Shown piece after piece: positions 107 to 11,000 of a stretch of 11,897 nucleotides of DNA. The translations under genes and the position numbers were made by a program. The stretch is from a virus (lineage: Duplodnaviria; Heunggongvirae; Uroviricota; Caudoviricetes), in the IMG/VR virus record IMGVR_UViG_2740892230_000013, one strand, 5' to 3'. A model generated the notes under the pieces. That model was given only the letters and a program-made list of their open reading frames with translations, searched no databases and was not told the DNA's origin. Numbering within the stretch: position 1 is the stretch's first letter; every line of letters starts with the position of its first letter.

Positions 107-1108
107 TTACCCTCTATTGTCAAAAGGGTTCAATTCAACAGCAGCCTCTAAATGACCTGGAGCAAAATGCGCATAACGCATAGTCATTTTTATATCGCTA
201 TGCCCCAGTATTTTTTGCAACACAAGAATATTTCCGCCCCGCATCATAAAATGACTGGCAAACGTGTGACGTAGCACATGAGTTAATTGCCCATCAGGAA
301 GCTCGATCTTCGCTCTCTTAATTGCAGCGTCAAAAGCCTCATAACATGGTGAAAATAGCGCTCCTCGTTTTTTAGGAAGTATAGCCTGCAATTGAGGTGA
401 AATCGGTACAGTGCGGTTCTTCTTTCCTTTAGTTTTAACAAATGTGATTCGACCGGGCAGTACTTGAGATTGCTTTAATCCTTCTGCTTCACTCCACCGA
501 GCACCCGTCGCAAGCCCAATACGGACAACAACCCCCAAATCTTTATTCCGTGACTCATCACACGCAATCAGAAGGCGTTCAATCTCATCTACATACAGAA
601 ACGCCAGTTCCTTTTCTTCCTCACGAAACTTGCGAATACCAGTCAGGGGGTTTTCACCAGACCACTCCCCAAGGCGCTTCAGTTCGGCAAAAACAGCATG
701 TAGATATGACTGCTCGCGATTAACGGTTGCTTCACTAAGTTTTTTCTTCCCCTTGGGATTCCATTCTCCTGATAGCCTTCTTTCCCGATAAGTAGCAAAC
801 ATATTTTTGTCAAACTGAGAAGCAAATGGATCTCCCAGCCTGGAACAAATCGCCTCAAGTTTGACTTTGCGCTCTGCACCAGAGGACAAGGTTTTACCGT
901 ACATCTCAAACCAACGAGCAATCAACTCAGAAAGACGAGGACCAGAACCATCTTGAAACTCGTCTCCAACTCTACTATTCATTATACGGCGCTCATAAGA
1001 GAGCGCCTCACTTTTTGTCGCAAACTGTTTACGAATGCGTTTTCCCGATGCCCCGTAGGGATAACATTCGCAAAGCCATTTACCTGATGTAATCTTACGA
1101 ACCGACAT
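107..1108 (-). CDS. int: Tyrosine recombinase / phage integrase (P2-type)
   Basis: 333-aa ORF. C-terminal catalytic region carries tyrosine-recombinase hallmarks (GARWSEA..., HVLRHTFASHF, LGHSDIKMTMRYAHF: conserved R, H-x-x-R and nucleophile Y). N-terminal 'GKRIRKQF.TKSEA' and the overall layout resemble P2-family integrases as recalled from memory; no search run. Confidence 0.9.
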   Translation of the reverse strand: MSVRKITSGKWLCECYPYGASGKRIRKQFATKSEALSYERRIMNSRVGDEFQDGSGPRLSELIARWFEMYGKTLSSGAERKVKLEAICSRLGDPFASQFDKNMFATYRERRLSGEWNPKGKKKLSEATVNREQSYLHAVFAELKRLGEWSGENPLTGIRKFREEEKELAFLYVDEIERLLIACDESRNKDLGVVVRIGLATGARWSEAEGLKQSQVLPGRITFVKTKGKKNRTVPISPQLQAILPKKRGALFSPCYEAFDAAIKRAKIELPDGQLTHVLRHTFASHFMMRGGNILVLQKILGHSDIKMTMRYAHFAPGHLEAAVELNPFDNRG

Positions 1109-2156: not shown

Positions 2157-2561
2157 TCACCTACCCTTAGTTTCGTTATAGTCACGACCAGCGATACGGT
2201 TATTACCACCAGAAATATTTAACTCACGTCCTGATGGCTGAGTTTCCTTTTCACTGATCGCACCTTTTAAAGCCCCAATCACCGCATTTTTCACATCTAA
2301 CGAAGCTGCTCGAAAGCGAGTAATCAACTCCTGCTCATCATCGTTATAAGTTTCAGGTGAGTGAATTCCCAACACAACATACTGAACATCAAGGCCAAAA
2401 CGAGACAGCGCTGCCAAATACGCAGCATCAGGAAAGCTATCTCCTTTCTCATATCTAAGCTGAGTTAGCTTTTTGACTCCACCAATGTCGCTCATGGCAA
2501 CTTGACTAAGTCCCAATCTTTCCCTTTCCTCACGCAACCGCTGACCAATATCATTTTTCAT
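2157..2561 (-). CDS. HTH XRE-family transcriptional regulator, probable prophage immunity repressor (C/CI analogue)
   Basis: 134-aa ORF. N-terminal helix-turn-helix of the Cro/CI (XRE) type (QRLREERERLGLSQVAMSDIGGVKKLTQLRYEKG). Divergently oriented to the rightward early operon across a 75-bp operator-like region. Followed in the same orientation by int. Confidence 0.8.
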   Translation of the reverse strand: MKNDIGQRLREERERLGLSQVAMSDIGGVKKLTQLRYEKGDSFPDAAYLAALSRFGLDVQYVVLGIHSPETYNDDEQELITRFRAASLDVKNAVIGALKGAISEKETQPSGRELNISGGNNRIAGRDYNETKGR

Positions 2562-2859: not shown

Positions 2860-3063
2860 ATGTCAGGTATAACCATCAATATCAATGTGAATGCCCCCTA
2901 TGTATCCCTGCAGAAATATGCAGAGATAACAGGTATCCCTCTTAATACATGCAAAAAGATGTTGGCTGACGGTCGAATTATTATCCGACCCAAACGCGCC
3001 AAAATGGAAAAGCCTGAAGTAAACCTTGTGGCGATGTTAAAAGACGCTTTGGCTAACAGCTAA
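2860..3063 (+). CDS. Cox/Apl-like small HTH protein (excisionase / early-operon regulator)
   Basis: 67-aa ORF with an AGGAGG RBS about 8 nt upstream. HTH segment YVSLQKYAEITGIPLNTCKKMLADGRI resembles the P2 Cox / AlpA-type excisionase fold as recalled from memory. Position is right of the repressor, as in P2 and 186. Confidence 0.65.
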   Translation: MSGITININVNAPYVSLQKYAEITGIPLNTCKKMLADGRIIIRPKRAKMEKPEVNLVAMLKDALANS

Positions 3064-5250: not shown

Positions 5251-5373
5251 GAAACCAGAACATGCACACACAAAAAAACCGCTTGCCATGCCGCAATCAG
5301 TCAGGTTACATTTCCGCTGCACCTCACAAAACGGGTGCCGGGTTTCGCAGCCTGCTGACTACACAAGCGCACA

Positions 5374-5393
5374 ACCGCGCCAGCGGTTTTTTT
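5374..5393 (+). terminator. Short intrinsic-terminator-like hairpin (ACCGC-GCCA-GCGGT followed by a 7-T run)
   Basis: 5-bp GC-rich stem, 4-nt loop and a T7 tract on the + strand, inside an ORF-poor stretch between the early small genes and the replication genes. Confidence 0.35.
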
Positions 5394-5448
5394 GTGCGTA
5401 CTGTATTGCCACGTTTTTTTCGCGTCAGAATTATGGCGGGGCGTACGG

Positions 5449-5467
5449 GGCCGACTTCGGTCGGGCC
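5449..5467 (+). other. Stable stem-loop with a UUCG tetraloop (GGCCGAC-TTCG-GTCGGGCC)
   Basis: Direct inspection: CCGAC/GTCGG stem closing a TTCG loop, extended by flanking G/C pairs. Lies in a region without a credible ORF. Confidence 0.35.
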
Positions 5468-5572
5468 GGGTTCTTGTGTAGCCGGTACTGCGAACCTCGT
5501 ACGTCTCGCCACCCACAGTTTCGCAGCTCTGGATGGTGAGTTTTCACAACTTACTACACAAGGGGCCACACC

Positions 5573-5803
5573 ATGGCAAACCGCAAACCACACCGCGCTA
5601 TCGCGGAGCGTCGTCACATCCAGACTGAAATCAACCGCAGACTTTCCCGCGCATCACGCGTCGCGCAAATCATGCACATCAATATGCTGCATGAGCACAG
5701 CCACGCACTATCAAACATTTATTCCGCCTCTGTTTTCAGCTATCTGGCGGATGATCTGCACGAGCTTCAACAGCTCATCCAGCAGCAAAACAAACTCCAT
5801 TAA
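5573..5803 (+). CDS. Putative small basic protein
   Basis: 76-aa ORF. ATG preceded by AAGGGG about 7 nt upstream. Codon usage looks host-like. Basic N-terminus, Q-rich C-terminus. No recognisable family. Confidence 0.4.
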   Translation: MANRKPHRAIAERRHIQTEINRRLSRASRVAQIMHINMLHEHSHALSNIYSASVFSYLADDLHELQQLIQQQNKLH

Positions 5804-5875
5804 TTCCTGTTCCGGGCCTTTCCTGCACCTTGCGGCGGGAGGCCTTCGCACATCTGTAGTAAAGAGAATTGCAGC

Positions 5876-6265
5876 ATGATTGACCGTCACGACTTCGTAA
5901 AATGGGTGCGCACACAGGACACCCGTCTGGCCCCAAAACTTCAGGCAATGTTTGATTTTTATCTCCGTGCCCGCGCCAGCCGGGCACGCACCACAAAACC
6001 GGAGAACGCAGACACCCTTTATTTCACCGTGGACGACTGTTACCGCGTAGCCTTCACGCCACAAGGTCTGGCCCTGTACACCCTGACACCACACGGCGAC
6101 TCCCTGCTGGCGTATTACAACTCCCCGGCCTCCGTATTTGCGGCAATGCTGGCGCATCGTACCGCTGGCGGGTGTGCCTCGCTGAGTGAATACACCACTG
6201 AATTTAACCGCCTTTCCGTCATCTTCTCGCAGGAGTGGCAGCGCGTGACGGGATACCAGCCATGA
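5876..6265 (+). CDS. Hypothetical protein translationally coupled to the replication initiator
   Basis: 129-aa ORF. Its TGA at 6263-6265 overlaps the ATG (6262) of the downstream gene A-like ORF. Confidence 0.6.
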   Translation: MIDRHDFVKWVRTQDTRLAPKLQAMFDFYLRARASRARTTKPENADTLYFTVDDCYRVAFTPQGLALYTLTPHGDSLLAYYNSPASVFAAMLAHRTAGGCASLSEYTTEFNRLSVIFSQEWQRVTGYQP

Positions 6266-9200
6266 GTGAGTTTGCATGGAGCTGGAATGAACCGCAGCCA
6301 GCTATTGATCCGGACGACTTCGCGAACTTCAGCCAGTTGCCAAAAACCGGACTGCAACGCGCCATTCGTTACTACTATGAGGCGGACAAAAAGGCTCAGG
6401 AAGAACAGGATGCGAAGGAAGAAGCCTTTTTCGCACAATCCGCCATGGGTAAAAAACTCATGGCATCCCTTGAGGAAGCCGGGCAACGCGAAAAACTGAT
6501 AAAAAACATCATCAGTAAGCGCCAGGAAATAAAGCAAGACCCGGTGGCCTGCGCCTTTGCCGAACTGAAGGCACTTCCCGTTTATCTGCGAGACCCCCTG
6601 AGCCGCCGCCTCTCTTTTTTACGTAAGAAGCAGGAATCTGACCGCCAGAAAGGAAAAAACGCCAGGCTGGCAGAACGCTATGCACAAGGAACCCTGCTCA
6701 AAATATTCAAACGTCTGAAACGCACTGACGGACGCTGGCTGACACCGTGTTATTGCTCCCTTGCCGGACGCGAACGCCTGGACGATTTGCTTTACCTGCC
6801 GCAGCTCAACAAACACCAGATACAGACGCTGGCCACCATGACGGCGGCGATGTTCAGCAGCACTTTTGAAACACTCTGCGATAACTTTGGCGCGACCGAT
6901 GGCGAGCTGACCATGAAAATTGCGCTGAAGGCGTATCAGATGCTGGCCCGCATGGCGTTACATCTGCACACCATGCCGCCGCATTACGAAGCACTGAGAA
7001 CGGACAAAGACCGGAAGAACGCACCGAATACGGAGCTGCTGCCGGGTGCCATCCTTCGCCTGACCTGTGCGGAATGGTGGAAACACAAACTGTGGCTTTT
7101 ACGTTGCGAGTGGCGGGAAGAACAACTCCGTGCCGCCTGTCTGGTTTCCAGAAAAACATCACCCTATCTGAGCCAGGACGCGTTAAGCGAGTTTCGCGCA
7201 CAGCGCGAGAAAACACGCGATTTCCTGAAAAGTTTCATGCTGGAAAATGAAGACGGGTTCACGATTGATCTCGAGACGGTGTATTACGCGGGAGTAAGTA
7301 ACCCGGTTCACCGTAAGGCAGAAATGATGGCCACCATGAAGGGGCTGGAACTTCTGGCCGAAGCCCGTGGCGACAAAGCGGTGTTTCTGACTGTCACCTG
7401 CCCGTCAAAATACCACGCCACAACGGAGAACGGTCATCCGAATCCCAAATGGAACGGGGCCACAATGCGCGACTCCAGCGATTACCTGGTTAACACGTTT
7501 TTTGCGGCGGTCCGCAAAAAACTGAACCGCGACGACCTGCGCTGGTATGGCATCCGCACGGTGGAGCCTCATCATGACGGCACCGTGCACTGGCATATGA
7601 TGGTCTTTGCACATCCGGAAGAAATCGACACCATTGTGTCCCATACCCGCGATATTGCCATTCAGGAAGACCGCCACGAGCTGGGCAATGATATTACTCC
7701 GCGCTTTAAGGTGGAGTATGTCGACGGCTCAAAAGGCACGCCAACCAGCTACATCGCCACCTACATCGGAAAGAACCTGGACAGCCGCGCCGTGGATGGC
7801 ATCGACCCGAAAACGGACAAGCCACGCGTGGACCACGAAACCGGAAAATCAATGGCCGAGAGCGTGGAACGCGCCATCGGCTGGGCGCGTCTTCACCGCG
7901 TCCGCCAGTTCCAGTTCTTTGGTATCCCCTCCCGTCAGGTGTGGCGTGAACTGCGCCGCCTTGCCAGCCAGATGGCACGCAACCCGGAAGGCCCGCAACG
8001 GCTGAAGGATGACGCAATGGACGCGGTACTCGCTGCCGCTGATGCCGGATGTTTTGCCACCTACATTGAGAAACAGGGTGGCGNNNNNNNNNNATGGCGT
8101 GAACTCCGCCGCCTTGCCAGTCAGATGGCCCGCAACCCGGAAGGTCCACAACGTCTGGAAAATGACGCAATGGATGCGGTACTCGCTGCCGCTGATGCCG
8201 GGTGTTTTGCCACCTACATTGAGAAACAGGGTGGCGTACTTGTTCCACGCAAAGACTACCTGATTCGCACCGCCTACGACCTCGCAGATGAGCTGAACGA
8301 TTACGGTGAACAGAGCGTACAGATTTACGGGATCTGGTCGCCGCTCATTGGGGAGTCTTCCCGCGTATGCACGCATCCGGATAACTGGAAGCTGGTAAGA
8401 CGCAAACCGGAAGCGGAAGACAGCGCCCGCGAAAATGNNNNNNNNNNAGAGCTGAACGATTACGGCGAGCAAAGCGTACAGATTTACGGGATCTGGTCGC
8501 CACAAATCGGGGAATCTTCCCGCGTGTGCACACACCCGGATAACTGGAAGCTGGTAAGACGTAAACCGGAAGCGGAAGACAGCGCCCGCGAAAATGGTTT
8601 TGACCTTCAGGGCGGCCCTGCCGCCCCTTGGACTCGTGGCAATAACTGTCCCCGTGTACAGGAAACAGACAACAACGGGACAGAACAGCCGGAAGAACGA
8701 CCAACATCGTGGCTGCAGCTCCCTGACGGCGTTGAAGTGAACGAATGGATGCGCTCACTGAAACGGCACGAACGCCGGGCGCTGATGCGTTCGCTTCGTG
8801 ACAAACAGGCAAAAAACAGCAGNNNNNNNNNNGGACAACAACGGGACAGAACAGCCGGAAGAACGGCCAGCACCGTGGCCGCAGCTCCCTGACGGCGTTG
8901 AAGTGAACGAATGGNNNNNNNNNNTGATGAAGCGCAGAGCTGGACACAGAGCCGCAAACAGCAGCGGCCTTTGCCTGATAACCACGAATTACTCGCTAAA
9001 GAATGGCGGGAGTCTGCTGAATNNNNNNNNNNCGATGAAATGCAGAGCTGGACACAGAGCCGCAAACAGCCGCGGCCTTTGCCTGATAACCACGAGTTAC
9101 TCGCTAAAGAATGGCGGGAGTCTGCTGAATCTCTCGGCCTGCATATCGGTGAACAACAGATGCAGCACCTGTTACGGGGCGGCAGTCTGTACGTTGACGG

Positions 9201-9624
9201 CAGCATCATTGCACCGCAGGGATTTGAAATTGTACGCAAACCGGATACCCGCCTGGACAGCCGAATCACGCAGCTCTGGCAGCGCCTGAGCCGTAATCAT
9301 GGCGTAAGCAGCACGGAGATCCGCCATAACCCGGTCGCCAGCTATCTGGCACAGCTGGGGGCATCAGACCCTGAAGCCGCCGCACGCCTGGCATCCACAC
9401 TTCAGCAGGACCAGAACACCATGAAAACACCCGTTACCGTGCTTTCTGACATGCTGCGCGCCATCCGCGACGCAGAGCACGCACAGAGAATCAGTGAAAC
9501 CACTGAACGCGCCCGCCGCAAAGCAGACCTGCTGCGGAGTGGCCTGACCAGTGGAAACAAAAAACAGACAGAAACGGGATTCACAAATCCCGTAAATGAG
9601 CAAAAAACGCGCCAAAAAACATGA
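6262..9624 (+). CDS. A: Rolling-circle replication initiator (P2 gene A-type endonuclease), interrupted by five N-gaps with duplicated variant segments
   Basis: HUH motif VEPHHDGTVHWHMMVF (7561-7608) and twin-tyrosine motif SYIATYIGKN (7744-7773), the hallmarks of the phiX174/P2-A family of rolling-circle initiators. Further matches to P2 gpA recalled from memory (FFGIPSRQVWRELRRL, DAGCFATYIEKQGG). ATG 6262 preferred over GTG 6235. The frame continues across the gaps at 8084-8093, 8438-8447, 8823-8832, 8915-8924 and 9023-9032 because each is followed by a re-started overlapping copy. True length cannot be determined. Confidence 0.85.
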
Positions 9625-9943: not shown

Positions 9944-11000
9944 ATGAAAATTTGTATCGACGACGGCTCCACCAACATCAAGCTGGCATNNNNNNNNNNT
10001 GTAATCGCCATTCACCACGCGCTGGTCAAATCAGGCATCACACCACAGGAGGTGGATGTGGTTGTCACCCTGCCACNNNNNNNNNNGGACCGAGAGCGGC
10101 GAACGCCGCAACGCCATCAGCCCGAACAGCTTCAAGTCGGAATGGTCTGCGCCGTTCGGTGGCACACAGCCCGCGAACTACATGCTTGATGGCGTGCGCT
10201 ATGGTTTTGATCCGGTCAGCGATCGCTTTGTCCAGACGACCGACACGCAATACCAGTACAGCGATGTGAACGTAATTGCCATTCATCACGCGCTAGTCAA
10301 ATCAGGCATCACGCCACAGGAGGTGGATGTGGTTGTCACCCTGCCACTGAGCGAATATTTCGACACAAACGCACAGCCGGACATGGCCAACATCAACCGC
10401 AAAAAAGCGAACGTCATGCGCCCGGTGGAGTGCCAGAACGGTGAGGCATTCACTATCCGTAACGTGCGGGTTATGCCTGAATCCATTCCGGCTGGCTTTA
10501 AAGCACTGGCTGACATGAGTCCGTTTGAATCCCTGCTGATTGTGGATTTGGGCGGAACCACGCTGGATGTGGCAAAGGTTCAGGGACAACTGGCAGGTAT
10601 CAGCCAGGTATTTTGCGATCCACACGTAGGCGTTTCCCTGATGGCCGATGCCGTACTGTCGGTGATGGCCACTAACGGTATGCGTACCAGTCACCACATC
10701 GCCAATACCATTATCGAACATCGCCATGATGAAGCCTGGCTGCGCCAGCACATCCACAATGACGCGCATTACGCCAGCCTGATGGCGGTTATTCGTGAAA
10801 AGGAAGAAACACTGAAACAACGCGTGATCCGCGCGCTGGCGGGTTTTTCGGGTTACGGGCGGGTGATGGTTGTCGGTGGCGGGGCGGAGATTGTGGCACC
10901 CGCTATCCGCGAAGCCTGCGGAGTTAATGCGACTTTCATCGCGGACGGGGTGCCACAGTTTGCTCTGGTTAATGGGCTGTACGCAATGGACAAGGAGTAA
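9944..11000 (+). CDS. parM: ParM/StbA-like actin-fold partition ATPase (composite across N-gaps; an alternative start copy is at 9701-9746)
   Basis: N-terminus MKI(Y/C)IDDGSTNIKLA. Internal matches to plasmid R1 ParM recalled from memory (ISPNSFK, YSDVNVIAIHHALVKSGI, VMPESIPAG, DLGGTTLDV, VVGGGAEI, LVNGLYAMDKE). GGA RBS 8 nt upstream of both start copies. 10000-10076 is a misplaced variant copy of 10272-10337. Confidence 0.85.

Follow-up and report, generated by a model that had tools for sequence, protein, structure and literature searches.

Why should a stretch of about 320 nucleotides (nt) ahead of a phage replication operon hold several hairpins but no credible open reading frame (ORF)? 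The question is raised by positions 5251-5572 of the viral record IMGVR_UViG_2740892230_000013, an 11,897-nt stretch of DNA that is called the window here and whose numbering is used unless another genome is named. The initial annotation, made from the sequence alone, had described these positions as a structured region poor in ORFs and had proposed a small regulatory RNA and/or an attenuator before replication gene A. Its observations were partly confirmed and its interpretation is supported. The window represents the early region of a prophage that is P2-like and belongs to the P88 group (genus Xuanwuvirus), and we consider it probable, at roughly 80%, that the stretch is an RNA immunity cassette of the P4/P1 type in the early operon of this P88-like prophage, working as in the P4-type model. 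The nucleotide sequence of positions 5251-5810 is 99-100% identical to that of the Escherichia phages PhiR44_2 and P884B11, 91.5% identical to P88 and 83% identical to Citrobacter phage Shae_phiSM.

Two RNA families, called at the curated gathering threshold of Rfam, match the plus strand over the full length of their models. The elements, including the sites that are complementary between the two RNAs and downstream of them, are as follows.

5283-5312, plus strand: predicted sigma-70 promoter of the module, from a consensus scan (-35 hexamer TTGCCA at 5283-5288, 18-nt spacer, -10 hexamer TACATT at 5307-5312)
5319-5393, plus strand: IsrK/P4-seqA-type leader RNA (RF01394, 64.1 bits against a threshold of 50, model positions 1-77 of 77)
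5319-5338, plus strand: leader hairpin 1
5339-5354, plus strand: leader hairpin 2, carrying site a1 (5344-5350)
5359-5367, plus strand: site b1, single-stranded
5373-5393, plus strand: intrinsic terminator (stem 5373-5388, U7 5387-5393), from a terminator scan and contained in the isrK match
5394-5428, plus strand: conserved linker between the terminator and the C4 RNA, from the alignment, including a second T tract (5414-5420)
5429-5516, plus strand: C4/P4-CI-type antisense RNA (RF01695, 83.2 bits against a threshold of 45, model positions 1-87 of 87)
5434-5450 paired with 5495-5511, plus strand: C4 basal stem of 17 base pairs (bp)
5451-5464, plus strand: C4 hairpin 1, with a UUCG loop at 5456-5459
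5465-5486, plus strand: C4 hairpin 2, with site b' (CUUGUGUAG) in the loop at 5473-5481
5488-5494, plus strand: site a', single-stranded (CUGCGAA)
5520-5526, plus strand: target site a2 (UUCGCAG), pairing with a'
5554-5562, plus strand: target site b2 (CUACACAAG), extending into AGGGG (5561-5565), the Shine-Dalgarno sequence of the next gene

The terminator-like hairpin with its T7 tract, on which the idea of an attenuator had been based, is present and homologous to the leader terminator region of P4, where the same isrK model matches 8615-8692; this supports the attenuator. The predicted transcription start, at about 5319, would lie near position 1 of the isrK model. The promoter segment is nearly invariant in 43 related spacers, the sequence upstream of 5262 differs, and the geometry matches that of the hexamers read upstream of the P4 leader (TTGCCT-18-TATAGT-6). 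We infer that 5283-5312 is the internal promoter of the module. A second promoter-like site at 5406-5434 was rejected: some of the related spacers, that of P88 among them, have TCGCCA as its -35 hexamer, and transcription from it would begin within the C4 stem. The second T7 tract, also noted at the outset, exists, and no hairpin precedes it; it reads T7 or CT5-6 in the relatives and is absent from the P4 linker.

The UUCG hairpin was likewise correctly seen, but it is not an element of its own. It is one arm of the C4 RNA, enclosed by the basal stem that the initial annotation overlooked. The minimum-free-energy (MFE) fold of the 88-nt C4 element equals the family consensus, at -47.7 kcal/mol (z = -4.46), while the minus strand reaches only -33.6. 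Two curated RNA families matched in full, together with the covariation described next, support the proposal of a small regulatory RNA. A scan for tRNA and tmRNA genes found none.

Another argument for the cassette is the pairing between its parts. The motif CTACACAAG stands at 5359-5367 and 5554-5562 and its reverse complement at 5473-5481, a triple that had gone unnoticed; three matches were found against 0.07 expected, a number reached in none of 200 shuffles. Thus b' is complementary to both b1 and b2. In the same way a' is complementary to both a1 and a2, and therefore the direct repeat GTTTCGCAGC that had been noted, with exact copies at 5342-5351 and 5518-5527, represents a1 and a2. The 10-mer itself, tested only with one mismatch allowed, is within chance (at least two matches in 76 of 200 shuffles).

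Homologous regions were compared by using the 76-amino-acid (aa) protein encoded directly downstream as query, which gave 80 loci in viral contigs. All 80 have a spacer of about 330 nt upstream of that gene; 43 of the spacers are distinct, and 36 distinct sequences were aligned for the helix counts given here. Differences between the 43 spacers are concentrated in six patches, with 54 of 110 variable sites within 85 of 258 positions, and these patches coincide exactly with a1, b1, b', a', a2 and b2. Pairing is complete for a1:a' (7 bp, four positions changed on both sides), b1:b' (9 bp, six positions) and a':a2 (7 bp, four positions), and amounts to 95.7% for b':b2 (9 bp, five positions). When the partners were slid by one to three columns as a control, pairing over the whole structure dropped to 36-46%. 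The three helices of the C4 RNA are also paired in every sequence, the basal stem and hairpin 1 with two double-compensatory pairs each and hairpin 2 without variation. The covariation analysis that had been suggested as a check thus found the pairing conserved with double-compensatory changes.

There are 10 combinations of b' and a' types, and a- and b-types reassort. A cognate RNA and target form 15-16 of 16 pairs, compared with an average of 10.9 in non-cognate combinations. This pattern is the signature of heteroimmune specificity types, such as have been described between P1 and P7 and between P4 and phiR73.

It might be argued that the stretch is nothing but a plain intrinsic terminator with chance hairpins between two transcription units and that no regulatory RNA is made. 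The terminator scan fits this, with four terminator-like sites against 2.1 expected, which is no enrichment. Two full-length Rfam matches, the three-way covariation and the conservation of the cassette in 1153 of 5426 complete E. coli genomes and across P2-like, P4-like and lambdoid elements speak against it, and we regard it as extremely improbable.

Some observations on the C4 RNA stand apart from this argument. In the relative L074 (122-404) a 17-nt insertion, aligned to window positions 5469-5470, duplicates hairpin 2 and creates two b' loops, one of the window type (CTTGTGTAG) and one of the type found in L030 (CTTTGCTCT). The relative's own b1 and b2 targets are of the window type only, and its RNA may act in immunity with dual specificity. 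In the basal stem, the 3' strand (CUCGCCA, 5505-5511) has an alternative partner in an invariant UGGUGAG (5533-5539), with which it can form a hairpin that holds a2 in its loop and is followed by UUUU (5541-5544); it appears in the MFE fold of the read-through RNA. This alternative hairpin, within 5505-5545, may serve as another attenuator or as a signal for processing. Between a2 and b2, the block CTCTGGATGGTGAG hardly varies.

What does the cassette control? Three reading frames follow or cross it.

5573-5803, plus strand: epsilon-like "derepression protein" gene (76 aa) under direct control of the RNA
5262-5879, plus strand: through-ORF of 205 codons, analogue of P4 eta (Pfam PF10554 Phage_ASH)
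5876-6265, plus strand: orf129 (129 aa, phrog_3237, no assigned function), whose ATG overlaps the stop of the through-ORF and which leads into gene A

Site b2 ends within the Shine-Dalgarno sequence of the epsilon-like gene, 10 nt ahead of its ATG, and the duplex of the b2 segment (5549-5568) with the segment of hairpin 2 carrying b' (5466-5485) is calculated at -20.2 kcal/mol. The order of sites, with a2 right after the RNA and b2 by the Shine-Dalgarno sequence before the ATG, is the same in P4 (seqC-kil) and in an Stx2 phage. The control of replication originally proposed needs refining: the direct target is the ribosome binding site of the epsilon-like gene, and gene A would be reached only through polarity in the operon.

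The 76-aa product matches PF25738 (32.6 bits against a gathering score of 27) and, over its full length, phrog_3688. It is 29% identical to P4 epsilon over 66 aa (BLASTP, E 6e-9), and the same gene is annotated as "derepression protein" in P88. Its own frame is the richest in synonymous codon variants among the homologues, 33 of 89 compared with 17 of 88 and 14 of 85 in the other frames. The P4 epsilon protein renders the helper's repressor inactive (PMC8628076). The cassette lies upstream of the epsilon-like gene in all 80 viral-contig loci, in P88, in Shae_phiSM and in five of six genome loci, the sixth having only 314 nt of upstream sequence; six loci were all that the scan of genome contigs with the epsilon alignment gave. 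In P4-like contigs, isrK and C4 also precede distant homologues of epsilon, and in lambdoid relatives the same cassette stands ahead of Rha/anti-repressor genes. An RNA lock ahead of an anti-repressor is a recurring theme; in P1, likewise, the c4 RNA lock is found ahead of ant (PMC8198154). A gapped search of viral contigs for other types of elements with the a and b specificity of the window gave mostly chance single matches and is not interpretable.

In a lysogen, the internal promoter would start transcripts near 5319. Most of them would end at the 5373-5393 terminator, giving an IsrK/seqA-type RNA of about 75 nt with a1 and b1, while read-through transcripts would be processed into a C4/CI-type RNA of about 80 nt (5434 to about 5515). 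By analogy its 5' end would be made by RNase P, which acts on P4 CI and on the C4 RNA of P1 and P7 (PMC5499578). Sites a' and b' would then bind a1 and b1 of nascent leaders and reinforce termination, following the P4 CI-seqA paradigm. On transcripts that escape they would bind a2 and b2, following the c4-icd/ant paradigm of P1; b2 adjoins the Shine-Dalgarno sequence of the epsilon-like gene, and translation of this gene would therefore be blocked. The untranslated RNA would be open to termination by Rho, which would keep orf129 and gene A off.

A different logic is known from the Salmonella prophage Gifsy-1 and might apply here. According to this alternative, a1 and b1 lock the read-through mRNA in cis with the C4 region, the short leader opens the lock in trans, ribosomes start at AUG 5433 and their passage switches on the anti-repressor, and the processed C4-like RNA is a by-product. 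It fits the match to the isrK family and the MFE fold of the full read-through RNA (5319-5590), in which a1 and b1 pair in cis with a' and b' as in the "structure A" of Gifsy-1. AUG 5433 is also in frame with the through-ORF in the window, in P4, in an Stx2 phage and in others. For Gifsy-1 itself the experimental support includes a 139-fold increase in anrP translation with IsrK in trans, compensatory mutants and a requirement for translation of orf45 (PMC4825925). However, a2 and b2 covary with a' and b' as tightly as a1 and b1 do, which antisense repression at the ribosome binding site requires and Gifsy-1-type activation does not. The ORF from 5433 is broken in five of 57 distinct sequences that keep the cassette intact, and it has 148 codons and overlaps the target gene out of frame, compared with an upstream ORF of 45 codons in Gifsy-1. 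We therefore find it unlikely that activation of this kind is the main logic. The two models are not mutually exclusive, and in the P4-type model, which we prefer, the short leader RNA could also titrate the C4 RNA in trans, as IsrK does in Gifsy-1, adding a complementary layer of control.

The claim that the region lacks a credible ORF held only in part. The spacer varies without codon periodicity, yet the 205-codon ORF reaches the Pfam gathering score for PF10554, barely, with 27.0 bits against a cut-off of 26; the matching residues 16-109 correspond to nucleotides 5307-5588, exactly over the RNA module, and the old "cI ORF" of P4 scores 59.7 bits for the same family. The ORF begins with the ATG at 5262, which is 21 nt ahead of the predicted -35 hexamer and 12 nt past the stop of the preceding gene. 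From there the ORF spans the leader, the terminator, the C4 RNA and a2/b2, crosses the epsilon-like gene out of frame and ends with a TGA that overlaps the ATG of orf129 (ATGA). Of 62 distinct Xuanwuvirus loci, 59 keep it open, starting from an ATG at -57/-60 and ending with the same ATGA, and the ATG is retained with five unrelated sequences at the upstream junction. The ORF shares its frame with the conserved AUG at the 5' end of the C4 RNA (5433). That frame is also open in P4, in two P4-like contigs, in an Stx2 phage and in two of three enterobacterial-type loci; the third, L086, has an open ORF too, in a shifted frame.

One explanation of this openness is that the product matters: the region would encode an Ash/Eta-family protein of the Bro network at 5262-5879, and the RNA-like structures would be incidental to coding. 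The PF10554 match and the frame open in nearly all loci agree with it, as does the scarcity of new stop variants, one in this frame compared with nine and seven in the other two. The pattern of variation does not. Variable sites in the spacer number 38/34/38 by coordinate modulo 3, just 24% of the codon variants in the conserved frame are synonymous, and the variable patches change by multi-base swaps that keep RNA pairing and not amino acids. Across the epsilon-like gene the through-ORF frame has 71 non-synonymous and 17 synonymous codon variants, and both covariance-model scores are far over threshold. One a-type (L068, L073 and L086) shifts the frame by +1 and then by -1 over the C4 region and the ORF stays open, therefore openness appears to matter and the peptide sequence does not. 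We consider the protein explanation very improbable. The case for selection on the through-ORF is modest and that for the peptide sequence weak; our reading is that the act of translation is selected and not its product. The other ORFs overlapping the spacer, 5301-5516 and 5324-5617 on the minus strand and 5288-5539 on the plus strand, have no significant family matches.

In terms of the P4-type model, translation would be the means by which the lock is overridden. During lytic growth, transcripts from an upstream early promoter would contain ATG 5262, and ribosomes would translate the 205-codon ORF over the terminator, the C4 sequence and the targets, overriding the RNA control as in P4 eta. 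They would then be passed to orf129 at the ATGA overlap. Of the whole scheme, the RNA families, their folds, the three-way pairing, the geometry of the targets, the conservation of the ORF and the gene neighbourhood are established here, while promoter activity, processing, termination, Rho polarity and the override by translation are extrapolated from P4, P1 and Gifsy-1.

Several results weigh against the immunity cassette as described. The promoter matches the consensus at only 9 of 12 positions, and the scan gave two sites against 0.9 expected. The leader alone folds no better than shuffled sequences (z -1.16), and the c4-a1b1 model RF03163 scores 20.9 bits, under its threshold of 46.7; the a1/b1 function is carried in the window by the isrK-type variant of the leader instead. 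The through-ORF is missing in three of the 62 loci, and its synonymous fraction, 0.24 compared with 0.17 and 0.16 in the other frames, makes a modest case for selection. Over the epsilon-like gene the same frame remains free of stops in 4% of trials when synonymous codons are resampled, compared with 29% when codons are permuted within the gene. Unlike eta/kil of P4 and the corresponding ORF of the Stx2 phage, the through-ORF does not share a frame with the gene behind b2, and kil is absent: the gene at 5573 starts 311 nt from 5262, in another frame, and belongs to the epsilon family. No match was found between the resident repressor and sequences in PDB, P2 C included. A scan for LexA boxes gave three weak matches against 3.5 expected, none near the cassette, and hence no link to the SOS response.

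The genes around the cassette are those of an integrating P2-like prophage.

107-1108, minus strand: integrase gene
2157-2561, minus strand: helix-turn-helix repressor gene (resident prophage repressor)
2860-3063: Cox-like gene, with small early genes nearby
6235-8892, plus strand: ORF of replication gene A (Pfam Phage_GPA)

An in-frame TGA at 8890-8892 interrupts gene A (6235-9624), and ten consecutive N come after it, at 8915-8924. The ORFs 6235-8892 and 8911-9624 share a frame and match the N-terminal and C-terminal parts of gpA profiles (phrog_91/phrog_6857). The split could be due to an assembly gap, a masked stretch or a defective prophage. Downstream of gene A, a gene for a ParB-like partition protein (phrog_691, E 7e-81) is found at 10056-11000.

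Of 5426 complete E. coli genomes, 1152 (about 21%) contain the cassette at a coverage of at least 80%. In E. coli RefSeq genomes and phage records the two RNA genes are covered by coding sequences (CDSs) annotated as "hypothetical protein", "ash family protein", "transcriptional regulator" or "peptidase", and none of the E. coli RefSeq and phage entries listed has an RNA feature under the match. P88 was recovered after mitomycin C treatment and forms plaques (PMC5285337). Our literature search found no paper describing the cassette in P88-like phages. A contig from a Gram-positive assembly, Vagococcus sp. WN89Y (L087, NZ_JBQPOM010000071.1), carries an enterobacterial-type isrK, C4 and epsilon-like gene with 87% protein identity, which is probably contamination of that assembly.

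An unannotated and often mis-annotated gap thus becomes a defined regulatory cassette in a prophage type found in about one fifth of complete E. coli genomes. A helper-type P2-like phage having the same RNA immunity and epsilon module as the satellite P4 bears on the origin of satellite immunity. The 10 specificity combinations over 32 base pairs form a natural series of compensatory mutations that could guide the design of orthogonal RNA locks and could predict heteroimmunity between prophages. A more far-reaching proposal, which we put forward tentatively and with considerable doubt, is that the cassette is the P88-like phage's own induction lock and not a trait borrowed from satellites, with an epsilon-like protein acting on the resident repressor, at least 10 orthogonal specificities and an ORF kept for translation only. 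If so, there would be no cross-control among co-resident prophages and P4-like satellites, as non-cognate pairs match far less well, and a helper and a satellite with matching specificities would silence or release one another. The override of an RNA attenuator by ribosomes would be the sole reason why the 205-codon ORF, which overlaps a real gene out of frame, is kept open.

How does the cassette compare with known systems? The leaders of antirepressor (Rha) genes in lambdoid phages of the Stx2, mEp460 and ST64B type are about 70% identical in nucleotide sequence over leader and C4. Stx2a_1447 has both Rfam matches, and the Stx2 phage has the same a/b geometry, with b2, AGAGG and an ATG ahead of the anti-repressor. 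In these phages the cassette is situated between cII and replication gene O, and the through-ORF of the Stx2 phage is in frame with the anti-repressor and annotated with it as one 383-aa CDS, which is not the case in the window. This "antirepressor" CDS of Stx2a_1447 (L003 1646-2797; AP012536.1 7535-8686) crosses the isrK (2006-2082) and C4 (2107-2194) matches. An in-frame internal ATG at 2252 comes right after b2 and AGAGG, and the sequence from the Shine-Dalgarno sequence through the first three codons is identical to that of P4 kil (AGGCTGCCATCATGGCTAC). The arrangement is the nested eta/kil layout of P4 in a lambdoid phage.

Gifsy-1 (IsrK - orf45/STnc1160 - anrP) resembles the window in its isrK match with its own terminator and in having an anti-repressor downstream. 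It also has a processed RNA of about 80 nt complementary to IsrK where the window has the C4 RNA, and an AUG at the 5' end of the C4-like region that opens an ORF (PMC4825925). IsrK exists as short and long isoforms, the processed RNA is STnc1160, and the pairing between leader and C4 region was validated by compensatory mutants; the short leader RNA acts in trans as an activator (PMC4825925). The differences are that Gifsy-1 is a lambdoid prophage whose output is AnrP and then AntQ, that its upstream ORF has 45 codons while that of the window has 148 (from AUG 5433) or 205 (from ATG 5262), and that in the published model the short RNA is the activator and the processed RNA is given no role.

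The immI region of P1 and P7 (c4 - icd - ant1/2) shares the C4 family, the two patches matched to upstream and downstream pairs of sites, the position of the downstream pair at the ribosome binding site of the first gene of an anti-repressor operon, and specificity variants that lead to heteroimmunity between P1 and P7 (Citron & Schuster 1990, cited in PMC8198154). In contrast to immI, the anti-repressor of the window belongs to the epsilon family and not to Ant, there is no icd, the upstream element fits the isrK model and not c4-a1b1, and the cassette stands ahead of replication genes.

The closest parallel is the immunity region of P4 (PLE - seqA - t1 - CI RNA - seqC - kil/eta - epsilon - ... 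- alpha). The same two models match it: C4 matches the CI immunity RNA at 8420-8507 (74.9 bits) and isrK the seqA/t1 leader (60.8 bits), in line with a published survey in which the Rfam C4 and isrK profiles detect relatives of CI and seqA (PMC10111431). P4 has a constitutive promoter inside eta, whose transcripts are terminated through the CI-seqA interaction and processed into CI, and full-length Eta is translated only from an upstream promoter, its translation preventing termination (PMC10111431, summarising Forti et al. 1999). In both elements a promoter, predicted in the window, is followed by an a1/b1 leader with terminator, an antisense RNA (processed in P4 and, by analogy, in the window) and a2/b2, with b2 by the ribosome binding site of the first gene; an epsilon-family gene and a replication gene also follow. 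A long ORF begins upstream of the internal promoter in both and crosses the RNA genes in the same frame as the C4 AUG; in P4 it lies on the minus strand (8168-8812) and is open over the promoter, seqA, t1, CI and seqC and in frame through kil. Its internal ATG at 8761 gives 197 codons, which we take to be eta.

The window differs from P4 in that the element is not a satellite but a complete P2-like phage that has integrase, Cox and gene A, and in that the epsilon-like gene stands directly behind b2, in a frame other than that of the through-ORF. This through-ORF ends on orf129 and not on epsilon, no similarity was found between orf129 and P4 orf151, the replication protein is of the P2 gpA type and not an alpha primase, and the a/b specificities are different. 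Every component comes from a described family, the logic is that of P4 immunity and no new mechanism is involved. What is distinctive is the host, a full P2-like phage without kil, in which the RNA targets the epsilon-like gene directly and the through-ORF, coupled to orf129, overlaps that gene in another frame.

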